Source of the DNA: Treponema sp. | GTDB lineage: Bacteria > Spirochaetota > Spirochaetia > Treponematales > Treponemataceae | Length of the DNA stretch: 64,000 bases | Direction: 5' to 3' | NCBI GenBank assembly: GCA_052169955.1 | Contig: JBQNBL010000013.1 | Location: forward strand, 71 to 64,070 | In this document: in pieces, positions 10,204 to 53,210 of the stretch | Layout: every line of letters begins with the position of its first letter | How positions within the stretch are numbered: position 1 is the first letter of the stretch | Program-made: the position numbers and the translations under genes | The notes under the pieces: model-generated | Databases searched by the model: none | What the model saw: the letters and a program-made list of their open reading frames with translations, nothing else | What the model was told of the DNA's origin: nothing

Positions 10204-10386
10204 GTAGATTTTTTTTACTTACAAAATTTATGAAACAAAATACTTAAAAACTATTTTGAACATTCTTTAGTCCCTCTATCATCATTTTATAAAAGAATTT
10301 GATAAGCACTTTATACAAATTGATACCTTTTTAGTTCCCCTTCTGTTAAGAAGATTCATTGGGAAGCACTCGTATTCACGAGTGCA

Positions 10387-10565
10387 ACATGTGTAACTTT
10401 GCATATGCGAAACTGTACAGTTTACGATAGCTAAATAATACAGTTTCGCATATGCAAACTGTACAGTTTGCAACCCCTAAATAATACAGTTTTGCCCCAG
10501 TACATTAGCTAAGGTACAAGCATAACACTAGCTAATGTACAATTATAACATTAGCTAATGTATGA
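10387..10565. repeat. 23-bp-period bipartite palindrome array, copy 1
   Basis: AAACTGTACAGTTT/AAATAATACAGTTT units at 10410, 10433, 10456, 10479, then TACATTAGCTAATGTA-like units whose central AGCT starts at 10507, 10530, 10553. Confidence 0.9.
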
Positions 10566-10927
10566 TAATGGCATTTCTTAATTAATATCTTTTTGTGTTG
10601 TTGATGGGAGTTAAGTTTTTGGGAAGTGGAGAGGTTGGAATGTTGCTTTTTCATGGGGAGCATTTTAGCATTTTTTTTGATTTTTGTCCTTGCAAGGCTG
10701 CTCTATTTTTTCTGAAAGAAAAATTTGAGGAAAATACTTTATAGAGGAGTGGTGAGAGAAGATAAAGTGCGCATTCAGGGAGTACAAAAGGCACCAGATT
10801 ATAGCTTTCAACTACATTATAAAAATACAATGATACTGGCAATTTTATCGAAAAAAAAAACTATACTTGATAGTTAGGTAAAAAAATGCTACCCTTAAAA
10901 TGTATACTATATTTTAAGGACGCTGTT

Positions 10928-11149
10928 ATGGACTATTTTGCAGTTTATAAAGAAAAGAAAAACATATTAAAGGTTCGTAAAGCAATGGTTAAATATGCTT
11001 TAGAGCATGGCATGAAGCCTGCAGCACGTGAGTTTAAGACTACAGTTAAGACAGTTAAAAAATGGGTTAAAAGGTTTAGAGAAGATGCTGAAAATGGACT
11101 TATAAATAGGAAGCAAACTTCAAAAAATGATGATAAGGGGGAAAAATAG
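10928..11149 (+). CDS. stand-alone helix-turn-helix protein resembling the N-terminal HTH of IS481/IS630-type transposases
   Basis: HGMKPAAREFKTTVKTVKKWVKRF..GL; AAGGA RBS before ATG 10928; no DDE domain follows. Confidence 0.65.
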   Translation: MDYFAVYKEKKNILKVRKAMVKYALEHGMKPAAREFKTTVKTVKKWVKRFREDAENGLINRKQTSKNDDKGEK

Positions 11150-25565: not shown

Positions 25566-27466
25566 ACAAAAAAATAATTTATGAAACTCATAAAGAAGGT
25601 ATAGATGAGTTTTCTTTTATCCGACTTGCTAGTTTTTCTGTTGATGTTTCTATAGGGGACGTTTGGGGAAATGCAGAAAAGATTGTAAAATGTGCTGAAA
25701 AAGCTTCACTTCTTAATTGTAACATAGTTTCTTTTCAAGCTCTAGTTTTGACTGGTTCTGCTTGTGGTTCTCTTTTTCTTGATAACTTTTTTCTTGAAAA
25801 TGCAAAAAAAGCTCTTTTCTATGTTGCAGAAAAAACAAAACAATTTTCTTCTATTTTTTTTGTAGGACTTCCAATAAAACAAGATGGACTTCTTTATAAT
25901 GCTGTATCTTGTATATATAAGGGAACTATTCTTTTTATAAATGTCTTGACTCCAGTTAATTTACAGTTTTTTAATGAATATAAAGGAGATAGAAAAAGGC
26001 TAGAAAAAGATATTTTATTCGCAAGTAATATAGTTTTAAGGCTTAAAACTATCTCAGGGCTTGCTGTTAGTTTGCAATGTATTAGTGGAGAGTGTTTATT
26101 TGATAGTGATGGGATAGCTGGAATTGAAATTGTCTTTTCAAATATTTCTAGTAAAGCAGGTTATGATGAACTTGGTCTTTATTCCAATATTTCAAACATA
26201 AGAAAAAATGCTATTCTTATTTCTTCTCCATCAATAACAGAAACCAATGAACAAAGTGTATATTCTTCTTTTACTGCCATCCTTGAAAAAGGAGAGGTGC
26301 TAGATCATCATTCAATATTTAATGAAGGCTTTTCTTATGCAGATGTTGATGTAGAGTTATTGTCTTCAAATGTAGAGGGAAAAGAAGATGTATTGCTTGA
26401 GATAAAAGATTTTGCAAGCATAGAAGAACTTAAAAGGCCAATATCCCCCCTTCCATTTATTTCTTTTTTGCCTCCTTTAAGAGAAAAGATTACTAGTTAT
26501 ATTTTTTCTCTTTTTACATTGCAGGTTAAAGCTATAAATGTACGTCTAAAAAGTATTGGAATAGAAAAGATTGTTTTAGGCGTTTCTGGTGGGCTTGATT
26601 CTACTATGGCACTTTTATTCTGCATTGCTTCTTTTAGAAACTGTCTTTTGCCAATTGATAATATACATTGCTTTACATTGCCATGTTTTGGTACTACAGA
26701 ACATACAAAATCAAATGCTATTTCTCTTTGTGAAGTTTTGCATTGTAGTATAGAAGAAATTTCTATTAAAGATTCTGTCTTGCAACATTTCAAAGACATA
26801 GGTCAAGATGATGCTTGTTTTGATGTAACTTTTGAAAATGCACAAGCTAGGGAAAGAACGCAAGTTCTTATGGATAAAGCAAACCAGTTAGGTGCTATTG
26901 TGCTAGGTTCTTCTGACCTTTCTGAAATTGCTTTAGGATTTTCCACTTATAATGGAGATCATATGGCTATGTATAATATAAATGCTGCAATTCCTAAAAC
27001 AATTTTAAGACTTTGCTTAGAATATGCTATTGAGCACCCTGATCTTTTTTTAGTAGAAGATGAAAATAAAAAGGCTTTTCAAAACATACTTTCTTCTATA
27101 CTTAATACTCCCATATCTCCTGAATTATTGCCAGCAAGAGATGGAAAAATAACACAAAAAACAGAAGAGATTTTAGGCTCTTATGAGCTACAAGATTTTT
27201 TTATATATCATATTTGTTTTAATCACTATCCTCCAAAAAAAGTCCTAGTTCTTAGTAAGAAAGTTTTTCCTAAACTTTCTTATAGTGAAATATCTACTTC
27301 ACTATCTTCATTTTATAGGCGTTTTTTTAAAAGCCAATTTAAAAGAAATTGTTCTCCCGAAGGAATAAATGCAACAGGTTTTTCACTTTCTAGTTGGAAG
27401 ATGCCTTCTAATGTTTCTGGGCTCTCCTTTTTTTATGAAAATACTAAAAACTATTTAGATAATTAG
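25562..27466 (+). CDS. nadE: NAD+ synthetase, two-domain type with a degenerate glutaminase domain
   Basis: GVSGGLDST, ENAQARERT, DLSEIALGFSTYNGDH, PISPELLP, SQFKR. Confidence 0.92.
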   Translation: MNKKIIYETHKEGIDEFSFIRLASFSVDVSIGDVWGNAEKIVKCAEKASLLNCNIVSFQALVLTGSACGSLFLDNFFLENAKKALFYVAEKTKQFSSIFFVGLPIKQDGLLYNAVSCIYKGTILFINVLTPVNLQFFNEYKGDRKRLEKDILFASNIVLRLKTISGLAVSLQCISGECLFDSDGIAGIEIVFSNISSKAGYDELGLYSNISNIRKNAILISSPSITETNEQSVYSSFTAILEKGEVLDHHSIFNEGFSYADVDVELLSSNVEGKEDVLLEIKDFASIEELKRPISPLPFISFLPPLREKITSYIFSLFTLQVKAINVRLKSIGIEKIVLGVSGGLDSTMALLFCIASFRNCLLPIDNIHCFTLPCFGTTEHTKSNAISLCEVLHCSIEEISIKDSVLQHFKDIGQDDACFDVTFENAQARERTQVLMDKANQLGAIVLGSSDLSEIALGFSTYNGDHMAMYNINAAIPKTILRLCLEYAIEHPDLFLVEDENKKAFQNILSSILNTPISPELLPARDGKITQKTEEILGSYELQDFFIYHICFNHYPPKKVLVLSKKVFPKLSYSEISTSLSSFYRRFFKSQFKRNCSPEGINATGFSLSSWKMPSNVSGLSFFYENTKNYLDN

Positions 27467-29165: not shown

Positions 29166-31139
29166 ATGATAGATTATTATTCAATTGCATACTACGTTAT
29201 TTCTGCAGTCTTGAGTCTTGGAGTTCTTATAGGTATTAGCATGATGAGTAAGGTGAAGACTGCTCGTCTTGGTAATGCTTTAAGTGCTTTGTGTATGCTT
29301 ATAGCTATTGCTGTAGTATTTGTCTTTTATGGAATCCTTTCAGTTTATCAAGTTTGGATAGGTCTTGGCATTGGTCTTGTTGTAGGACTTATGCTTACCA
29401 TCAAAGTTGATATGATCTCTATGCCTCAGACTGTAGCTCTCTTGAATGGGCTTGGAGGTGCTGCCTCTGCAGTTGTAGGTTTTTTAACACTAATAAATCC
29501 AATGGGCGTTGGAATGGGCAGGTTTGTATTAACAACCTCTGCTATTGCTATTGTAGTGGGTTCTGTTACATTTTCAGGGAGCTTGATTGCAGCAGGAAAG
29601 TTACACAGAGTGTTAAAACAACAACCTGTGGTTTTGCCAATGCACCAGATGTGGACAAGTTTGTGTTTAATTATCTCTTTGGCATTTATTGCATTCTTTG
29701 CTTTTGCACCTGTTAAGCACATACTTAGCTATTTAGTTTTAGTCTCTATTGTTGGTACTCTTATAAGTCTAGTTTTTGGTGTGATCTTTGCTATACGTGT
29801 TGGTGGGGCAGACATGCCTATTACTATTTCACTCCTTAATTCCACATCAGGGGTTGCAGCGGCTATTGCAGGTATGGCAACAAGGGATATTTTGACTGTA
29901 TCTGTTGGTGGCATTGTTGGAGCTTCTGGTTTACTTCTCACACAAATTATGTGCCGTGCAATGAATAGAAGTCTTTCAAATATTCTTTTTAGTAAGGGAG
30001 CAAAGGTTGCTTCTCCAGCTTTTGCAAAAGCTGAGACTGTTGCAGTACCCACTAAAACTGAAGTAAAGGTTGAAAGTAATGAGGATAATCTTACATCTTG
30101 GCTCAAAGAAGCAAAGAATATAATCATTGTACCGGGCTATGGAATGGCAGTCTCTCAAGCACAGTCAAGAGTGAAAATGCTGGCAGATAAGCTTGAAGGC
30201 ATGGGGAAAAATGTACGCTTTGCAATTCATCCTGTAGCAGGAAGAATGCCGGGACACATGAATGTATTGCTTTGTGAAGTAGATATCCCTTACGAGAAGT
30301 TATACGAAATGGAAGCCATCAATGGAGAGTTTGAAAAAACAGACCTTGTTATCATTATAGGTGCAAGTGATGTTGTGAACCCTGCAGCAAACACAGCAGA
30401 AGGCACTCCAATATATGGAATGCCAATACTAGAAGCTGGTAAGGGTAAGCACATTATAATCTGCAACTTTGACTTAAAACCTGGATACGCAGGCGTTCCA
30501 AACCCATTGTACGAAATGAAAGACAAAGTTCACCTACTTTTAGGAGATGCTAAAGATAGCATTGATACCTTGCTTTCTAAATTACAAGCTACTTCTTCGG
30601 TAGCTAAAGCTGAAGTAGTAGGTGGAGGTAATGAAGACAATGTTAGCTCTTGGGTGAAAGAAGCTAAGAATATAATCATTGTACCTGGCTATGGAATGGC
30701 AGTCTCTCAAGCACAGTCAAGAGTGAAAATGCTAGCTGATAAACTTGAAGGCATGGGAAAAGAAGTACGCTTTGCAATTCATCCTGTAGCAGGAAGAATG
30801 CCAGGACACATGAATGTATTGCTTTGCGAAGTTGATATTCCTTACGAAAAGTTATATGAGATGGAAGCTATCAACGGAGACTTTGAAAAAACAGACCTTG
30901 TTATCATTATAGGAGCAAGTGATGTTGTGAACCCTGCAGCAAACACAGCAGAAGGTACTCCAATATATGGCATGCCAATACTAGAAGCTGGTAAGGGTAA
31001 GCACATTATAATCTGCAACTTTGACTTAAAACCTGGATACGCAGGCGTTCCAAACCCATTGTACGAAATGAAAGACAAAGTTCACCTACTTTTAGGAGAT
31101 GCTAAAGATAGCATTGATGGCATTTTGTCTAAACTATAG
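29166..31139 (+). CDS. pntB: NAD(P) transhydrogenase beta subunit with two dIII domains
   Basis: MPQTVALLNGLGG, GGADMPITISLLNS; VPGYGMAVSQAQ and HPVAGRMPGHMNVLL each occur twice. Confidence 0.95.
   Translation: MIDYYSIAYYVISAVLSLGVLIGISMMSKVKTARLGNALSALCMLIAIAVVFVFYGILSVYQVWIGLGIGLVVGLMLTIKVDMISMPQTVALLNGLGGAASAVVGFLTLINPMGVGMGRFVLTTSAIAIVVGSVTFSGSLIAAGKLHRVLKQQPVVLPMHQMWTSLCLIISLAFIAFFAFAPVKHILSYLVLVSIVGTLISLVFGVIFAIRVGGADMPITISLLNSTSGVAAAIAGMATRDILTVSVGGIVGASGLLLTQIMCRAMNRSLSNILFSKGAKVASPAFAKAETVAVPTKTEVKVESNEDNLTSWLKEAKNIIIVPGYGMAVSQAQSRVKMLADKLEGMGKNVRFAIHPVAGRMPGHMNVLLCEVDIPYEKLYEMEAINGEFEKTDLVIIIGASDVVNPAANTAEGTPIYGMPILEAGKGKHIIICNFDLKPGYAGVPNPLYEMKDKVHLLLGDAKDSIDTLLSKLQATSSVAKAEVVGGGNEDNVSSWVKEAKNIIIVPGYGMAVSQAQSRVKMLADKLEGMGKEVRFAIHPVAGRMPGHMNVLLCEVDIPYEKLYEMEAINGDFEKTDLVIIIGASDVVNPAANTAEGTPIYGMPILEAGKGKHIIICNFDLKPGYAGVPNPLYEMKDKVHLLLGDAKDSIDGILSKL
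30114..31118 (+). repeat. near-identical intragenic direct repeat with 552-bp period (dIII x2)
   Basis: 30114-30566 matches 30666-31118 with mostly synonymous differences. Confidence 0.95.
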
Positions 31140-38454: not shown

Positions 38455-38703
38455 AAAAACTATTCAATTTGAATAGGTAAGGAAGTCTATTATAAATTAA
38501 AGAATGAGTCAAGATAAATATCAATTTTTTTTAAGAAAATGATGATTAATTTGTAAAAAAATGCTATCATAAGATTCTAAATGGAAGATTAATGTCAATC
38601 TTAATGTTTAACTCTTTTTTGTTTTCTAAAAAGAATGTTATTAAAGAACATAGTTGGAAAGCGTCTATAAAAGTATCTATAACACTATACTAGAACATAA
38701 ATG

Positions 38704-38884
38704 ATTGTACATTAGAGAATGTTATAGTAATACATTAGCTAGTGTTACGATTGTACATTAGCTAGTGTTATTATTGTACCTTAGCTAATGTACTCAGGCG
38801 AAACTGTACAGTTTAGCATAGCGAAACTGCACTATTTAGACATCGCAAACTGTACAGTTTAGACATCGCAAATCGTGCAGTTTC
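38704..38884. repeat. 23-bp-period bipartite palindrome array, copy 2 (inverted relative to copy 1)
   Basis: Central tetramers start at 38714, 38737, 38760, 38783 (TACATTAGCTA type) and 38806, 38829, 38852, 38875 (AAACTGTACAGTTT type). Confidence 0.9.
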
Positions 38885-43541: not shown

Positions 43542-44430
43542 TTATAATTTTTTTATTTCATCATGGCTTAAGCCTGTAAGTTTGATAATTTCTAAGATAT
43601 CATATTTGTTTTGTTTCATCATCTTAGCCATTGTAGTTTTTGCCTTTCTTTCCTTCTTTCTTTCCTTCTTTCTTTCCTCTTGCAATTCCTTGAGCCATAG
43701 CTTTTTCTTCTGTTTCCTTTAGCATTGAAATCCTATCACTTTCATAATGCCATGCAGCTTGGTAGGCAGCTCTTTCTTTCTCATTTGAATAAAAAGTGTT
43801 CATTACAGTATTTGCTTTTGCTATCATAGGGTTTTCCTCCGCTAGCTTTTCTCTTAATTTTTTATCGTCTGTTCTTATAAATAATAGCCATTTTTCTAGT
43901 TCTGACATGTTTTTATCGTACAATTTTGTTAAATCAAAAAAATGTATTTCAAGCACCTCATCTAGTTGTGTATGTGTTTCAATTTCTAATATTTGATATA
44001 TTGAATGCAATTTATTTGTAAGTGGAAAAGGGCTATTTAAAATATTTATCGCAATACACTTATTGAGATTGGAATATGCATCTCCTTTTTTAAAGTCTTC
44101 TATAAACAATTCACACCAGTAGAGAATACTTCGTTTTGGATAATAGCTGAAGTAAATATTTTGCATTTCAATATTTATCTTTTTTTTATCTTTTAACACA
44201 ATTTTTATGTCTAGTTTGCCAGTCTTATCCTGATAGAATTGAGGAGATAATTCATTATTCTCAATTCTGACATCTTCAAAATTGCTTTTATTTATTTCTA
44301 TTGCTAGAGAAAGAAAGTCTATCAGAATATCTTTATTTTCTTCTGTCCCAAATAATTTCTTGAAGGCATAATCATTTCTTGCAGTAAATTTTTCTGTTTC
44401 GGCTAGTGGGGCAGTTATGTCTTTTCCCAT
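43542..44430 (-). CDS. Rpn-family PD-(D/E)XK nuclease with its C-terminal domain frameshifted off
   Basis: NDYAFKKLFG, LDI..INIEMQ, KRSILYW, LEIHFFDL; main ORF stops at 43624; the typical tail AKMMK..IIKLTGLS..EIKKL lies in another frame to 43542. Confidence 0.85.
43644..43678. repeat. 12-bp tandem repeat, about 3 copies (GKKE)
   Basis: CTTTCTTTCCTT x2.9. Confidence 0.85.
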
Positions 44431-51014: not shown

Positions 51015-53210
51015 GTGAAAGCATTCGTTAAAGTTATAACTAGTTTAGTTGTTTTTATTTTTGTTTTTATTTTTCTCTTTTTGTTTTCAACGCGACATTT
51101 TTCTTTGATAGACTCTCAGTATTATCAGCCTTCTGTTGTGTCTTCTATAAATTCAAATCTTGAGAAGGTCGTTTCTGATTTTGAAGAGTGGCAGGAAGTT
51201 TTAAGACAAAGTTTTGAGTCTTTTTCTGAAGAAAGTGTTCTAAAACGTTGTATGAGTCAAAATCAAACGGATGGGGATATTGCTTTAAGAGAAAAGGTAT
51301 CTGCAGAACTCATGCTTTCTATTCCTTCTATGCAAGGTATTCGCGTCGTAGAAAAAGAGACACAAAGAATTCATTTTAGTACGTTTTCAACAGATGTTAT
51401 TTCCAAGTCCAACTCAAGCATTTCTTATGCAAAGTATGGGAAGAATATAGCTGATATTTCGTATAACACAATTGAAGCATCTTCTAGTAATAATAAACCT
51501 TGTGTTGATATTTTAAACAATGCTTTTATTTTTGTTCAACCTTTCTATGATGATTACAATGTTGAAAGAGGGAAAGTGTTTTTCTATGTTTCTGCAAAAT
51601 CTTTTGGTAGAAAACTCATTAATGAAAAACGCCTTTCTTTGAGTGAGGAAATAACTCTACTAACAGATGATAACTTAAATTTTATTGGGATTTTATTGGG
51701 ACTTCCGTATGAAAACTCTGTTTCTCTTAAAGAAGAAGTTTTAAAAGAATGGAAAGTAGGTGAAAGTGATTTAGCACAAATATCTAGTAAAGAATCTTTA
51801 TCTAGTCCTTTTTGGATATTGGTAACAGTTAAAAAACTACCTTATTATGTTGGTAGAATATGCGATAAAAATATGTTTATAATGCCTACATATGCTAGGT
51901 ATTTTTTGATAACTGTAGTATCTTTGGCATTCTTTTTAATAAGTTTTTTGATTTTAAACATGAGGCAAGATAGGTTTGTTATTGCAAGGAAAAAAATTCA
52001 AAAACTTCACGCTAGTATTATAGTGGATATTTTAAAAAATGCTGAAAATTTAAATGATGAAGCATTGCAAGAAAAAATTGAGTATAAAAGGCATGATGCT
52101 AATGCAGAAATACGAAAAGCTTTAGGTAAAAAGATTTCACAAAAGTATGAGAACGAGATAAATGCGATATTGGATCAAAGTTGGGCAAATATTATTCAAG
52201 TTATAAAGGGAAATATTAGTGATGAAAAGTTAGGTCATAAAAATAATGATGATGAAATATTAAAATTACTTAAAGAAATTTTGCAACAAGGTAAAGGTAT
52301 AACAAGATCAAAAGCTAATTTCCAAAAAGATGTGCCATTAGTTAAACTAGAGGCAGAAGGAATTGAAGAATTAGACGATGCTGTAGAGCCTACTGAAGAA
52401 TTAGAAGAAGTTGATAGTGAGGATGTTAAAGAAGTAGAGGCTGAAGATTTTGAAGGCTTGGATGAGATAGAAGATTTAGAAGAGGTAGATGAGCTTGAAG
52501 AAGTTCCACTGGATGAAAGTGTTGAAGAGAATGAGCCTACAGACGAGATAGAAGATTTAGAAGAGGTGGAAGAGCTTGAAGAAGTTGTGCCTGATGAAAG
52601 TGTTGAAGAGAATGAGCCTACAGACGAGGTAGAAGATTTAGAAGAGGTGGAAGAGCTTGAAGAAATTCCACTGGATGAAAGTGTTAAAGAAAGTGAAGCT
52701 TCAGAGGAGATAGAAGAGTTAGAAGAAGTTGAAGAGCTTGAAACTTTGGAAGAGGTGCAAGATTTTGAAGAGGTTGGAGTTGATGATTTTATATCAATGG
52801 AAGAAGAAGCACCACCTCCTAGACCTAGATTTGAAGAAGTTGATGACTATATAGAACCTGATAATGAATTATTCCATTCGCAAAGTGAAGAGGCTGAAAA
52901 TAGGTTTAGACATATTAATATTGGAGGGCTTGATTTTTCTTATCTTGATGATAAAAAAGACGAGGAAACTCCTTCAAATGTGTTGGAAGTGAGAAATGCC
53001 TGGGTTGAAGATCCTGTTCCTGATGGTTCTCCTATAATGGGGGAACTTGAGGTTATAGGTGATTGTGAGCCTAGTGATGTGGAAAGTTTAGAAGAAGAAG
53101 AGGAAATCATCAATAAGGATGGAATCTATACTATTTCTGAGTTTGAAAAACCGGAACCTAGCGATATGGAATTTAAAATTCTTGTTGATTCTGTAATCAA
53201 TGAGAATTGA
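51015..53210 (+). CDS. membrane protein with periplasmic domain and highly acidic repeat-rich cytoplasmic tail
   Basis: Two TM segments; EELEE-rich C-terminal half. Confidence 0.8.
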   Translation: MKAFVKVITSLVVFIFVFIFLFLFSTRHFSLIDSQYYQPSVVSSINSNLEKVVSDFEEWQEVLRQSFESFSEESVLKRCMSQNQTDGDIALREKVSAELMLSIPSMQGIRVVEKETQRIHFSTFSTDVISKSNSSISYAKYGKNIADISYNTIEASSSNNKPCVDILNNAFIFVQPFYDDYNVERGKVFFYVSAKSFGRKLINEKRLSLSEEITLLTDDNLNFIGILLGLPYENSVSLKEEVLKEWKVGESDLAQISSKESLSSPFWILVTVKKLPYYVGRICDKNMFIMPTYARYFLITVVSLAFFLISFLILNMRQDRFVIARKKIQKLHASIIVDILKNAENLNDEALQEKIEYKRHDANAEIRKALGKKISQKYENEINAILDQSWANIIQVIKGNISDEKLGHKNNDDEILKLLKEILQQGKGITRSKANFQKDVPLVKLEAEGIEELDDAVEPTEELEEVDSEDVKEVEAEDFEGLDEIEDLEEVDELEEVPLDESVEENEPTDEIEDLEEVEELEEVVPDESVEENEPTDEVEDLEEVEELEEIPLDESVKESEASEEIEELEEVEELETLEEVQDFEEVGVDDFISMEEEAPPPRPRFEEVDDYIEPDNELFHSQSEEAENRFRHINIGGLDFSYLDDKKDEETPSNVLEVRNAWVEDPVPDGSPIMGELEVIGDCEPSDVESLEEEEEIINKDGIYTISEFEKPEPSDMEFKILVDSVINEN
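52461..52742 (+). repeat. 81-bp tandem repeat, about 3.5 copies
   Basis: DEIEDLEEV(D/E)ELEEVPLDESVEENEPT units starting 52461, 52542, 52623, 52704. Confidence 0.9.

Follow-up and report, generated by a model that had tools for sequence, protein, structure and literature searches.

The window, a 64,000-nt stretch of a Treponema genome (contig JBQNBL010000013.1 of assembly GCA_052169955.1, positions 71 to 64,070; contig C13 of the genome called G000 here), contains two copies of an intergenic element in which two types of short palindrome follow each other on a single 23-bp register. The phased two-palindrome array that the initial annotation described for the first copy is confirmed, and it extends well beyond the window: a genome-wide search identified 81 loci in G000. 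Related species carry versions in which one of the palindromes has a different, always symmetric core. The element may be a dispersed, DNA-level platform for two dimeric proteins, of which a conserved one would sit on the second palindrome and a fast-evolving one, shared with phages, on the first; the chances for and against this reading are about evenly balanced. G000 is the assembly of an uncultured Treponema and comprises 2,212,272 bp in 49 contigs, with a G+C content of 32.8% and a completeness of 94.6%.

The first palindrome, A, is 14 bp long and of the AAACTGTACAGTTT type, and the second, B, is 16 bp long and of the TACATTAGCTAATGTA type. In copy 1, they are arranged as follows:

10366-10385, + strand: left hairpin module GCACTCGT-ATTC-ACGAGTGC, a perfect hairpin, read from the sequence
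10387-10492, + strand: A array, five 14-bp units with 9-bp linkers (sequence, Tandem Repeats Finder and pattern search)
10387-10400, + strand: degenerate A unit AACATGTGTAACTT
10410-10423 and 10456-10469, + strand: perfect A units AAACTGTACAGTTT
10433-10446 and 10479-10492, + strand: variant A units AAATAATACAGTTT
10501-10585, + strand: B array, 16-bp units with 7-bp linkers, three units plus a degenerate fourth
10501-10516, 10524-10539 and 10547-10562, + strand: B units with 1, 2 and 1 mismatches to TACATTAGCTAATGTA
10570-10585, + strand: degenerate fourth B unit, in phase

The hairpin that the initial annotation placed ahead of the array is present and perfect. Its four A units were recovered as two perfect and two variant ones, although a fifth, degenerate unit at the very position where it let the array begin had not been counted. 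Similarly, its three B units lie at 10501, 10524 and 10547, but the in-phase degenerate fourth had been overlooked. The dyad centres fall at 10416.5, 10439.5, 10462.5, 10485.5, 10508.5, 10531.5 and 10554.5. Thus, the proposed 23-bp step is exact and is kept through the switch from A to B, while the absolute positions given earlier were about 1.5 nt too low. Tandem Repeats Finder reports periods of 23 and 46 bp in the arrays of the window. Neither pattern is expected at such numbers by chance: with up to 2 mismatches, the A pattern has 5 matches in the window against 0.74 expected, and with up to 3 mismatches, the B pattern has 8 against 0.96, numbers that none of 100 shuffles reached in either case. 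The linkers of just 7-9 bp, compared with spacers of about 26 bp or more in CRISPR arrays, agree with the earlier statement that the array is not a CRISPR.

Across G000, 236 A-type and 264 B-type matches form 82 clusters, one of which, a chance pair of 3-mismatch matches at C30:1848, was removed to give the 81 loci. Of these, 45 are in the + and 32 in the - orientation, and four are undetermined. A typical element is about 200 bp long and consists of an optional hairpin module, 4-5 A palindromes and 3-4 B palindromes. The register is kept in the other copies, as the centres of 469 of 473 neighbouring unit pairs lie at exact multiples of 23 bp (231 of 233 AA, 77 of 78 AB and 161 of 162 BB pairs). 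An alignment could be made of the 69 copies that have their 150-bp flanks inside the contig, taken from the 77 oriented loci. In it, the match to the consensus is 94.0% over 104 palindrome columns compared with 67.5% over 56 linker columns, and gaps occupy only 42 of 11,040 cells. The linkers therefore accept substitutions, not length changes. The 10-mers ACTGTACAGT and ATTAGCTAAT occur 179 and 90 times in G000, with one and two occurrences, respectively, outside the arrays. Per genome, there are roughly 240 B and 300-400 A sites. The idea of a cluster of restriction sites was rejected, since the observed/expected ratio of TGTACA is 0.91, which places it 37th among the 64 palindromic hexamers.

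The elements are distributed along the genome more evenly than chance allows. The 47 within-contig intervals of G000 have a mean of 24.7 kb, a standard deviation of 9.1 kb, a coefficient of variation (CV) of 0.368, a minimum of 11.2 kb and a maximum of 51.1 kb. None of 5000 random placements matched the observed CV or the minimum interval, and neither did any of 5000 draws from the 511 intergenic gaps of 150 bp or more, 73 of which hold an element. The 51-kb interval represents a single element split by an insert; with this insert removed, 46 intervals remain, with a mean of 24.1 kb, a CV of 0.344 and a maximum of 43.1 kb. Some copies must be missing from the G000 list because 11 of 98 contig ends fall within 400 bp of an element. 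Contigs under 11 kb with elements at both ends do not occur in G000. In the related genomes G001 and G003, those pairs among the listed matches that share a contig are 11.7-22.2 kb apart.

Elements prefer promoter-side intergenic regions. When genes are approximated by open reading frames (ORFs) of 120 aa or more, 63 loci have a neighbour on both sides; in 31 of these, the flanking genes are divergent, in 28 they are in tandem and in only four they converge. Of 74 B-side genes, 53 are directed away from the element, typically with the start 200-330 bp from the array, and so are 48 of 66 A-side genes. A regular neighbour gene was not found, and the largest neighbour family comprises 10 ORFs at 8 loci.

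A DNA search of 41 related genomes, all members of which with a complete sequence of 2.7-3.1 Mb gave no match, returned matches in five, all belonging to the same genus. The exact B-pair pattern, at up to 1 mismatch, occurs 73 times in G001, 58 times in G003, 10 times in G020 and 5 times in G019, and not once as the reversed-pattern control. In G019, all five matches fall on a single contig, a near-identical counterpart of G000 contig C2. This G019 contig, C4, corresponds to C2:36-57 kb and carries G000-type elements, and G019's own version of the locus is found on its contig C14; C4 is thus probably a mis-binned contig. G019 nevertheless has one or more elements of its own.

The B palindrome and the 23/46-bp register recur in four to five related species, and the A/B junction and some linkers (CGCATATGC) are likewise common to different species. 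The A core differs by species and is always symmetric. The A units are AAACTGTACAGTTT in G000, AAAYCGNNCGRYTT in G001, AACGTACGTT in G003 and ATTCTGTACAGAAT in G020. Their cores are CTGTACAG in G000 and G020, in which the outer bases differ, YCGNNCGR in G001 and G019, and ACGTACGT in G003. One collinear locus is occupied in G000, G001 and G019 at the same place and in the same orientation, in each genome with its own A core, and a hybrid unit of G001 at this locus keeps a G000-type half. These two observations suggest, from sequence comparison, that the A core may have changed in place or by module replacement, and not only through independent insertion.

As to gain, loss and REARRANGEMENT, two G001 elements have collinear sites in G000; the intergenic region measures 684-704 bp in G001 but only 36-37 bp in G000. 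These two G001 copies share about 325 bp, including a tail of about 190 bp beyond the B array that is missing from the G000 copies. In the two empty-site comparisons, no target duplication or clean ends were readable, the ends of the element being undefined, and the ends of the consensus are not complementary to each other. Relative to controls, positional conservation of the elements is borderline: a G000 element is found within 1 kb of 25 of 89 element flanks, and the corresponding figures are 6 of 46 for flanks of control gaps (p = 0.054) and 5 of 171 for those of grid positions. The idea that elements mark synteny breakpoints or recombination hotspots failed its control. Among elements and control gaps mapped on both flanks (7 of 29 control sites were not so mapped), 30 of 33 G001 and G003 elements are non-collinear with G000, as are 18 of 22 control gaps (Fisher p = 0.42); for grid positions, the figure is 15 of 75. 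Gene order in G001 and G003 compared with G000 is broken at most larger intergenic gaps (control stretches L127-L146), and synteny blocks span a few kb.

Two kinds of association with phages were observed. At C1:169177-169283 of G000, an array consisting of an A array plus TACATTAGCTAA is broken off inside the first B unit (B1), and the remainder, TCTTAGCTAAGGTA plus the units B2 and B3, lies at C1:220236-220298. The 51-kb insert between the two (C1:169283-220236) is prophage-like and encodes a head maturation protease, a virion structural protein and a tyrosine integrase of 510 aa, the gene of which (C1:218548-220080) is located beside the right half-array. The core common to both half sites is TTAGCTAA. 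In this one case, therefore, an element is split into two half sites around an integrase-bearing insert, as expected of an attachment site.

The second association concerns the A palindrome alone. A prophage-like region of G000 contains two direct copies, at C3:21664-22087 and C3:42952-43376, of a 425-bp repeat (95% identity) that includes 4-5 A units and no B units. Genes of this region encode Sak4-like, DnaD-like, tape measure and head morphogenesis proteins, methyltransferases, Dit and the terminase large subunit. From the end of the second copy, it is about 340 bp downstream to the gene of this subunit. A G019 prophage with an 84% identical terminase has the same two-copy layout, at C1:12893 and C1:36367 and thus 23.5 kb apart, and its arrays have the G019-type core AAACCGCTCGGTTT. 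An A-only array hence adjoins the terminase gene in both G000 and G019, with a second copy 21-23 kb away. Ahead of the terminase, no small-terminase-like gene was found in the prophage-like regions of either genome. In G007, G014 and G018, the genes of more distant terminase homologues follow a small-terminase-like coding gene and not an array. Together with the chromosomal elements at C3:2345 and C3:58961, the arrays on C3 follow each other in steps of 19.4, 21.3 and 15.9 kb. The exact B pair has no match in viral contigs.

A protein-binding array is the preferred reading because palindromes and phase are conserved while linkers drift, and because the A core changes symmetrically. Each 23-bp unit would seat one dimer. 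The B units would bind a conserved host protein, and the A units a fast-evolving protein with a specificity common to the host and its resident phage. Adjacent dimers, about 2.2 helical turns apart, would touch each other and cover roughly 200 bp. Copy-and-paste or gene conversion would multiply the family, and the even spacing would arise from the exclusion of copies close to existing ones or from selection against them. The output might be a global operator, an insulator or a chromosome-domain mark, among which a chromosome-scale role is favoured because of the spacing. A more specific version of this role is unlikely: the arrays would be chromosome-scale spacing marks, serving as anchors or boundaries for a two-protein complex that are needed about every 24 kb along any DNA to be kept; the A specificity would co-evolve with some 300-400 sites, and prophages would carry marks at 19-21-kb steps to fit the pattern.

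Several observations weigh against such a platform. Unit variants tied to a position recur across copies (B1 ..AAGGTA, B2 AACAC..); their presence in most copies shows common descent, and the conservation may in part reflect inheritance rather than selection. The stems of the left hairpin covary, and in some cases, neighbouring A units are exactly reverse-complementary to one another, the matched central base included, as in the pairs AAATAATGCAGTTT with AAACTGCATTATTT and AAACTTAACAGTTT with AAACTGTTAAGTTT. The proteins binding A and B remain putative. ParB_N is not expanded in carriers, which have two matches each, like most of the genus's 26 genomes. YbaB hardly differs between species whose A cores do, and in a small helix-turn-helix (HTH) protein encoded beside copy 1, described below, the HTH stretch is identical in G000 and G019 despite their differing A cores. 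Co-occurrence of the phage proteins with carrier genomes was not seen either: at the thresholds used, and in bins that are only 65-87% complete, there was no match to the terminase in G001 and G020 and none to the integrase in G001, G003 and G020. One metagenome contig (L210/L211) has a G000-type and a G001-type element at positions 26329 and 32242, only 5.9 kb apart; it may be a chimeric assembly or a genome with two A types at closer spacing. Finally, all genomes are draft metagenome bins in which positions relative to the origin and terminus are not placed.

The left hairpin of copy 1 belongs to a larger module. Ten copies have perfect stems of 8-11 bp with four different stem sequences and a loop of the ATTC/ATAC type, and a perfect left stem of at least 7 bp is present in 24 of 71 copies, compared with 7.5% of shuffles. 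In other copies, the left module is a double-hairpin unit of 69-70 bp in tandem, with up to four or five repeats. This unit has conserved flanks (GCGATGAG.GGAAA..ATTGGAA.GC ... GCAACATGT) and stems that take one of a few forms, each fully compensated. There are 16 such clusters: nine adjoin an element at its A end, and of the remaining seven, four are located at contig ends. Examples are:

C14:25156-25363 of G000: double-hairpin tandem units
C31:9841-9980 of G000: double-hairpin tandem units
C21:39879-40017 of G000: double-hairpin tandem units
C37:6994-7062 of G000: double-hairpin tandem units
10340-10400 of the window: single double-hairpin unit

Such structures raise the alternative that the palindromes act as stem-loops in single-stranded DNA or RNA, moved by a structure-specific enzyme and acting on transcripts through stability, termination or processing, in the manner of repetitive extragenic palindromic (REP) sequences and bacterial interspersed mosaic elements (BIMEs). 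The initial annotation had left the choice between an array of binding sites and a mobile or REP/BIME-like element. A dispersed repeat with conserved palindromes and phase fits both, but membership of the REP/BIME group fails with regard to both the gene context and the transposase gene of REPs, that of the REP-associated tyrosine transposase (RAYT). Covarying left stems, double hairpins at the A end, the complementary neighbouring A units, a unit -1 that is often an extended palindrome (CCCCT..AGGGG, CCCAT..ATGGG) and the strong fold of the whole of copy 1 (-81.5 kcal/mol) would all suit hairpins of this kind. REPs are GC-rich imperfect palindromes that occur mainly at gene 3' ends or between convergent genes, the very position that the Treponema elements avoid. 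The Y1 transposase family (PF01797), which includes RAYT, has no match in G000 at its completeness, and the control search matched 6 of 14 reference genomes. Moreover, the conserved unit -2 (AAATA[AG]T[AG]CAGTTT) is not self-complementary, and independent hairpins do not need exact 23-bp phasing across two unrelated palindrome types. The strand preference of folding is inconsistent, with the A part slightly favouring one strand (43 versus 26 copies) and the B part the other (60 versus 8); as it is confounded by shared descent, this asymmetry was rejected as evidence. Copy 1 has no terminator-like site according to a promoter and terminator scan, and its single promoter-like site, compared with 4.2 expected, means that there is no excess. 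A search of Rfam at the gathering threshold found only three transfer RNAs in the window, and a permissive one gave at best 31.7 bits against a threshold of 100, with generic hairpin models. The reading as a REP-like hairpin element is therefore fairly unlikely.

There are two further alternatives. The arrays could form a cassette of phage-derived cis sites, with A as terminase or packaging site and B as attachment site, the chromosomal copies serving as a transduction platform, for satellite-like mobilisation or as decoys. The A-only arrays that immediately precede the terminase gene in two prophage-like regions, both devoid of a small-terminase-like gene, point in this direction, as do the identity of phage and host chromosomal A cores in G000 and G019, the use of B1 as crossover site by the integrase-bearing insert, and a longest interval of about 43 kb, the size of a phage genome; transposable elements of the miniature inverted-repeat type (MITEs) common to hosts and their viruses are also documented in the excerpted text of PMC11602168. 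The cassette is nevertheless distinctly improbable. Each phage has two arrays, one of them far from the terminase gene, the B pair is absent from all viral contigs, the intervals of 11-43 kb are too variable for packaging from site to site, binding of the terminase to the arrays is putative, and that terminase and integrase were not found in several of the incomplete carrier bins counts here as well. A selfish repeat of the MITE type, which would have no host function and owe its spacing to insertion exclusion (target immunity) or to recombinational loss of close pairs, is also unlikely, if a little less so. It would account for the position-specific variants common to copies, for the variable presence at collinear sites, including the two elements facing empty 36-37-bp gaps, and for a family confined to a few species of one genus; the published BrickBuilt MITE is, from what is given in PMC4596501, likewise intergenic with an internal 23-nt repeat. 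Unexpected of dead copies is that all 81 loci keep palindromes and phase while the linkers diverge. A CV of 0.34-0.37 is more even than the value of about 0.55 that an 11-kb exclusion plus random placement would give, the latter being an arithmetic estimate made without simulation. In comparisons that are not exhaustive, no terminal inverted repeats were seen in the consensus and no target duplication at the two empty sites, and no transposase partner was found: no insertion sequence (IS) or transposase family was detected next to the copies, and matches to rve in G000 stayed below threshold.

Dispersed intergenic repeats are common in bacteria, and the proposed platform has features of several known systems. 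Operators of the lambda OR/OL type are 14-17-bp dyad sites with a centre spacing of about 23-24 bp, and their cores differ between phages while the geometry stays the same. The Treponema arrays resemble such operators of temperate phages in dyad sites, centre spacing, core variation and occurrence in a prophage, but they have 7-9 sites of two types in a row, occupy about 80 host loci and do not adjoin a repressor gene. KorB operators on RK2, the sites of Noc and SlmA, and matS are scattered palindromes of 13-16 bp, some of them in promoters, with one dimeric protein and a chromosome-scale role. These sites of ParB-family and nucleoid proteins are single, whereas the Treponema sites form phased arrays of two kinds, in carriers without an extra ParB_N paralogue. 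Like the REP/BIME group of enterobacteria and pseudomonads, as portrayed in the excerpts of PMC2817692, the element consists of high-copy extragenic palindromes, forms mosaic clusters with regular internal spacing and comprises proposed protein-binding sites. It differs in its AT-rich, perfect palindromes of 14-16 bp, its promoter-side position, the lack of a RAYT gene and the even genome-wide spacing.

No described REP, MITE or RNA family was matched. Judging from the part of the literature covered, the closest published relative found is the BrickBuilt MITE of Porphyromonas gingivalis, for which the available text of Klein et al. 2015 (PMC4596501) reports a 23-nt tandem repeat, IS5-type ends, 19 intergenic loci and bidirectional promoter activity. 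As far as this text goes, both elements are dispersed and intergenic, have a tandem 23-nt unit with leader and tail parts, lie close to flanking genes and have a narrow host range. In BrickBuilt, again in the text available, a single repeat type is reiterated 1 to 22.8 times per locus with no spacers in between, the terminal inverted repeats are of the IS5 type, and a genome has 19 loci. The Treponema element, in contrast, has two palindrome types, linkers of 7-9 bp, near-fixed unit numbers, no inverted ends seen, 81 loci and an over-even spacing, and motif searches revealed no sequence similarity between the two. Neither palindrome was found in the relevant literature, and the listings for Treponema repeats and evenly spaced intergenic repeats contain no published family of this kind. 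Within this scope, no description was found of a family that joins an exact two-palindrome register, symmetric core switching between species, a prophage-shared module and near-regular spacing. If the spacing is functional, the element would be a sequence-defined unit of bacterial chromosome organisation; if it results from insertion exclusion, it would be a natural genome-wide record of target immunity. Either way, the numbers of A and B sites per genome suit the study of joint change in a DNA-binding specificity and its hundreds of sites.

As partners of the element, RAYT, rve, ParB and YbaB received no support. A lead is provided by the gene adjacent to copy 1:

10886-11149, + strand: gene for an 87-aa stand-alone HTH_28 protein (Pfam HTH_28, E 2.6e-9), about 320 bp from the B end of copy 1

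The gene is single-copy in G000 and has orthologues in G001, G003 and G019, with weaker ones in two non-carriers; the G001 orthologue does not adjoin an element. As its HTH stretch is the same in G000 and G019, the protein cannot set the A specificity, but it is a candidate for the conserved B units. A second small HTH_28 ORF, of 55 aa, is located at C3:21316-21483 of G000, just upstream of the first phage array; its match to HTH_28 (E 6.3e-5) is below the Pfam cut-off.

The second copy of the element in the window is inverted with respect to the first:

38708-38792, - strand: B array of copy 2; its four units begin at 38708, 38731, 38754 and 38777
38801-38883, - strand: A array of copy 2; its four units begin at 38801, 38824 (AAACTGCACTATTT), 38847 and 38870 (AAATCGTGCAGTTT)

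Together, the two copies give rise to the inverted repeat I1 (10477-10599 versus 38694-38816, 123 nt, 78% complementary). A composite transposon bounded by the pair was rejected because the intervening 28 kb is filled with housekeeping genes, namely queA, lgt, pntAB, ptsI and those for NAD synthase and ATP-binding cassette (ABC) transporters.

A different repeat family, with units of about 125-130 bp and the inverted ends CTTTTCAAAATAGAGGGCATG ... CATGCCCTCTATTTTGAAAAG, abuts the B end of several elements and is sometimes in tandem. In G000, it is present at:

C17, about 23.0-23.4 kb: ~125-130-bp repeat family
C18, about 22.2-22.5 kb: ~125-130-bp repeat family
C29, about 1.4-1.75 kb: ~125-130-bp repeat family
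C20, about 9.8-10.0 kb: ~125-130-bp repeat family
C39, contig end: ~125-130-bp repeat family

Four of five PD-(D/E)XK paralogues (PDDEXK_2, Rpn-type) lie within 2.1 kb of an element (C10:31647, C4:87077, C6:64163 and C2:17259 of G000). The window's own paralogue, at 43624-44430, is 5.7 kb from the nearest one. Within the 657-aa PntB-like ORF of the window (29166-31139), a 300-nt direct repeat with 89% identity (30052-30351 versus 30604-30903) looks like an internal duplication. A GAA/GAG-codon-rich tandem repeat of 81 bp, with 3.4 copies and 87% matches, occupies positions 52464-52742 within the ORF at 51015-53210.

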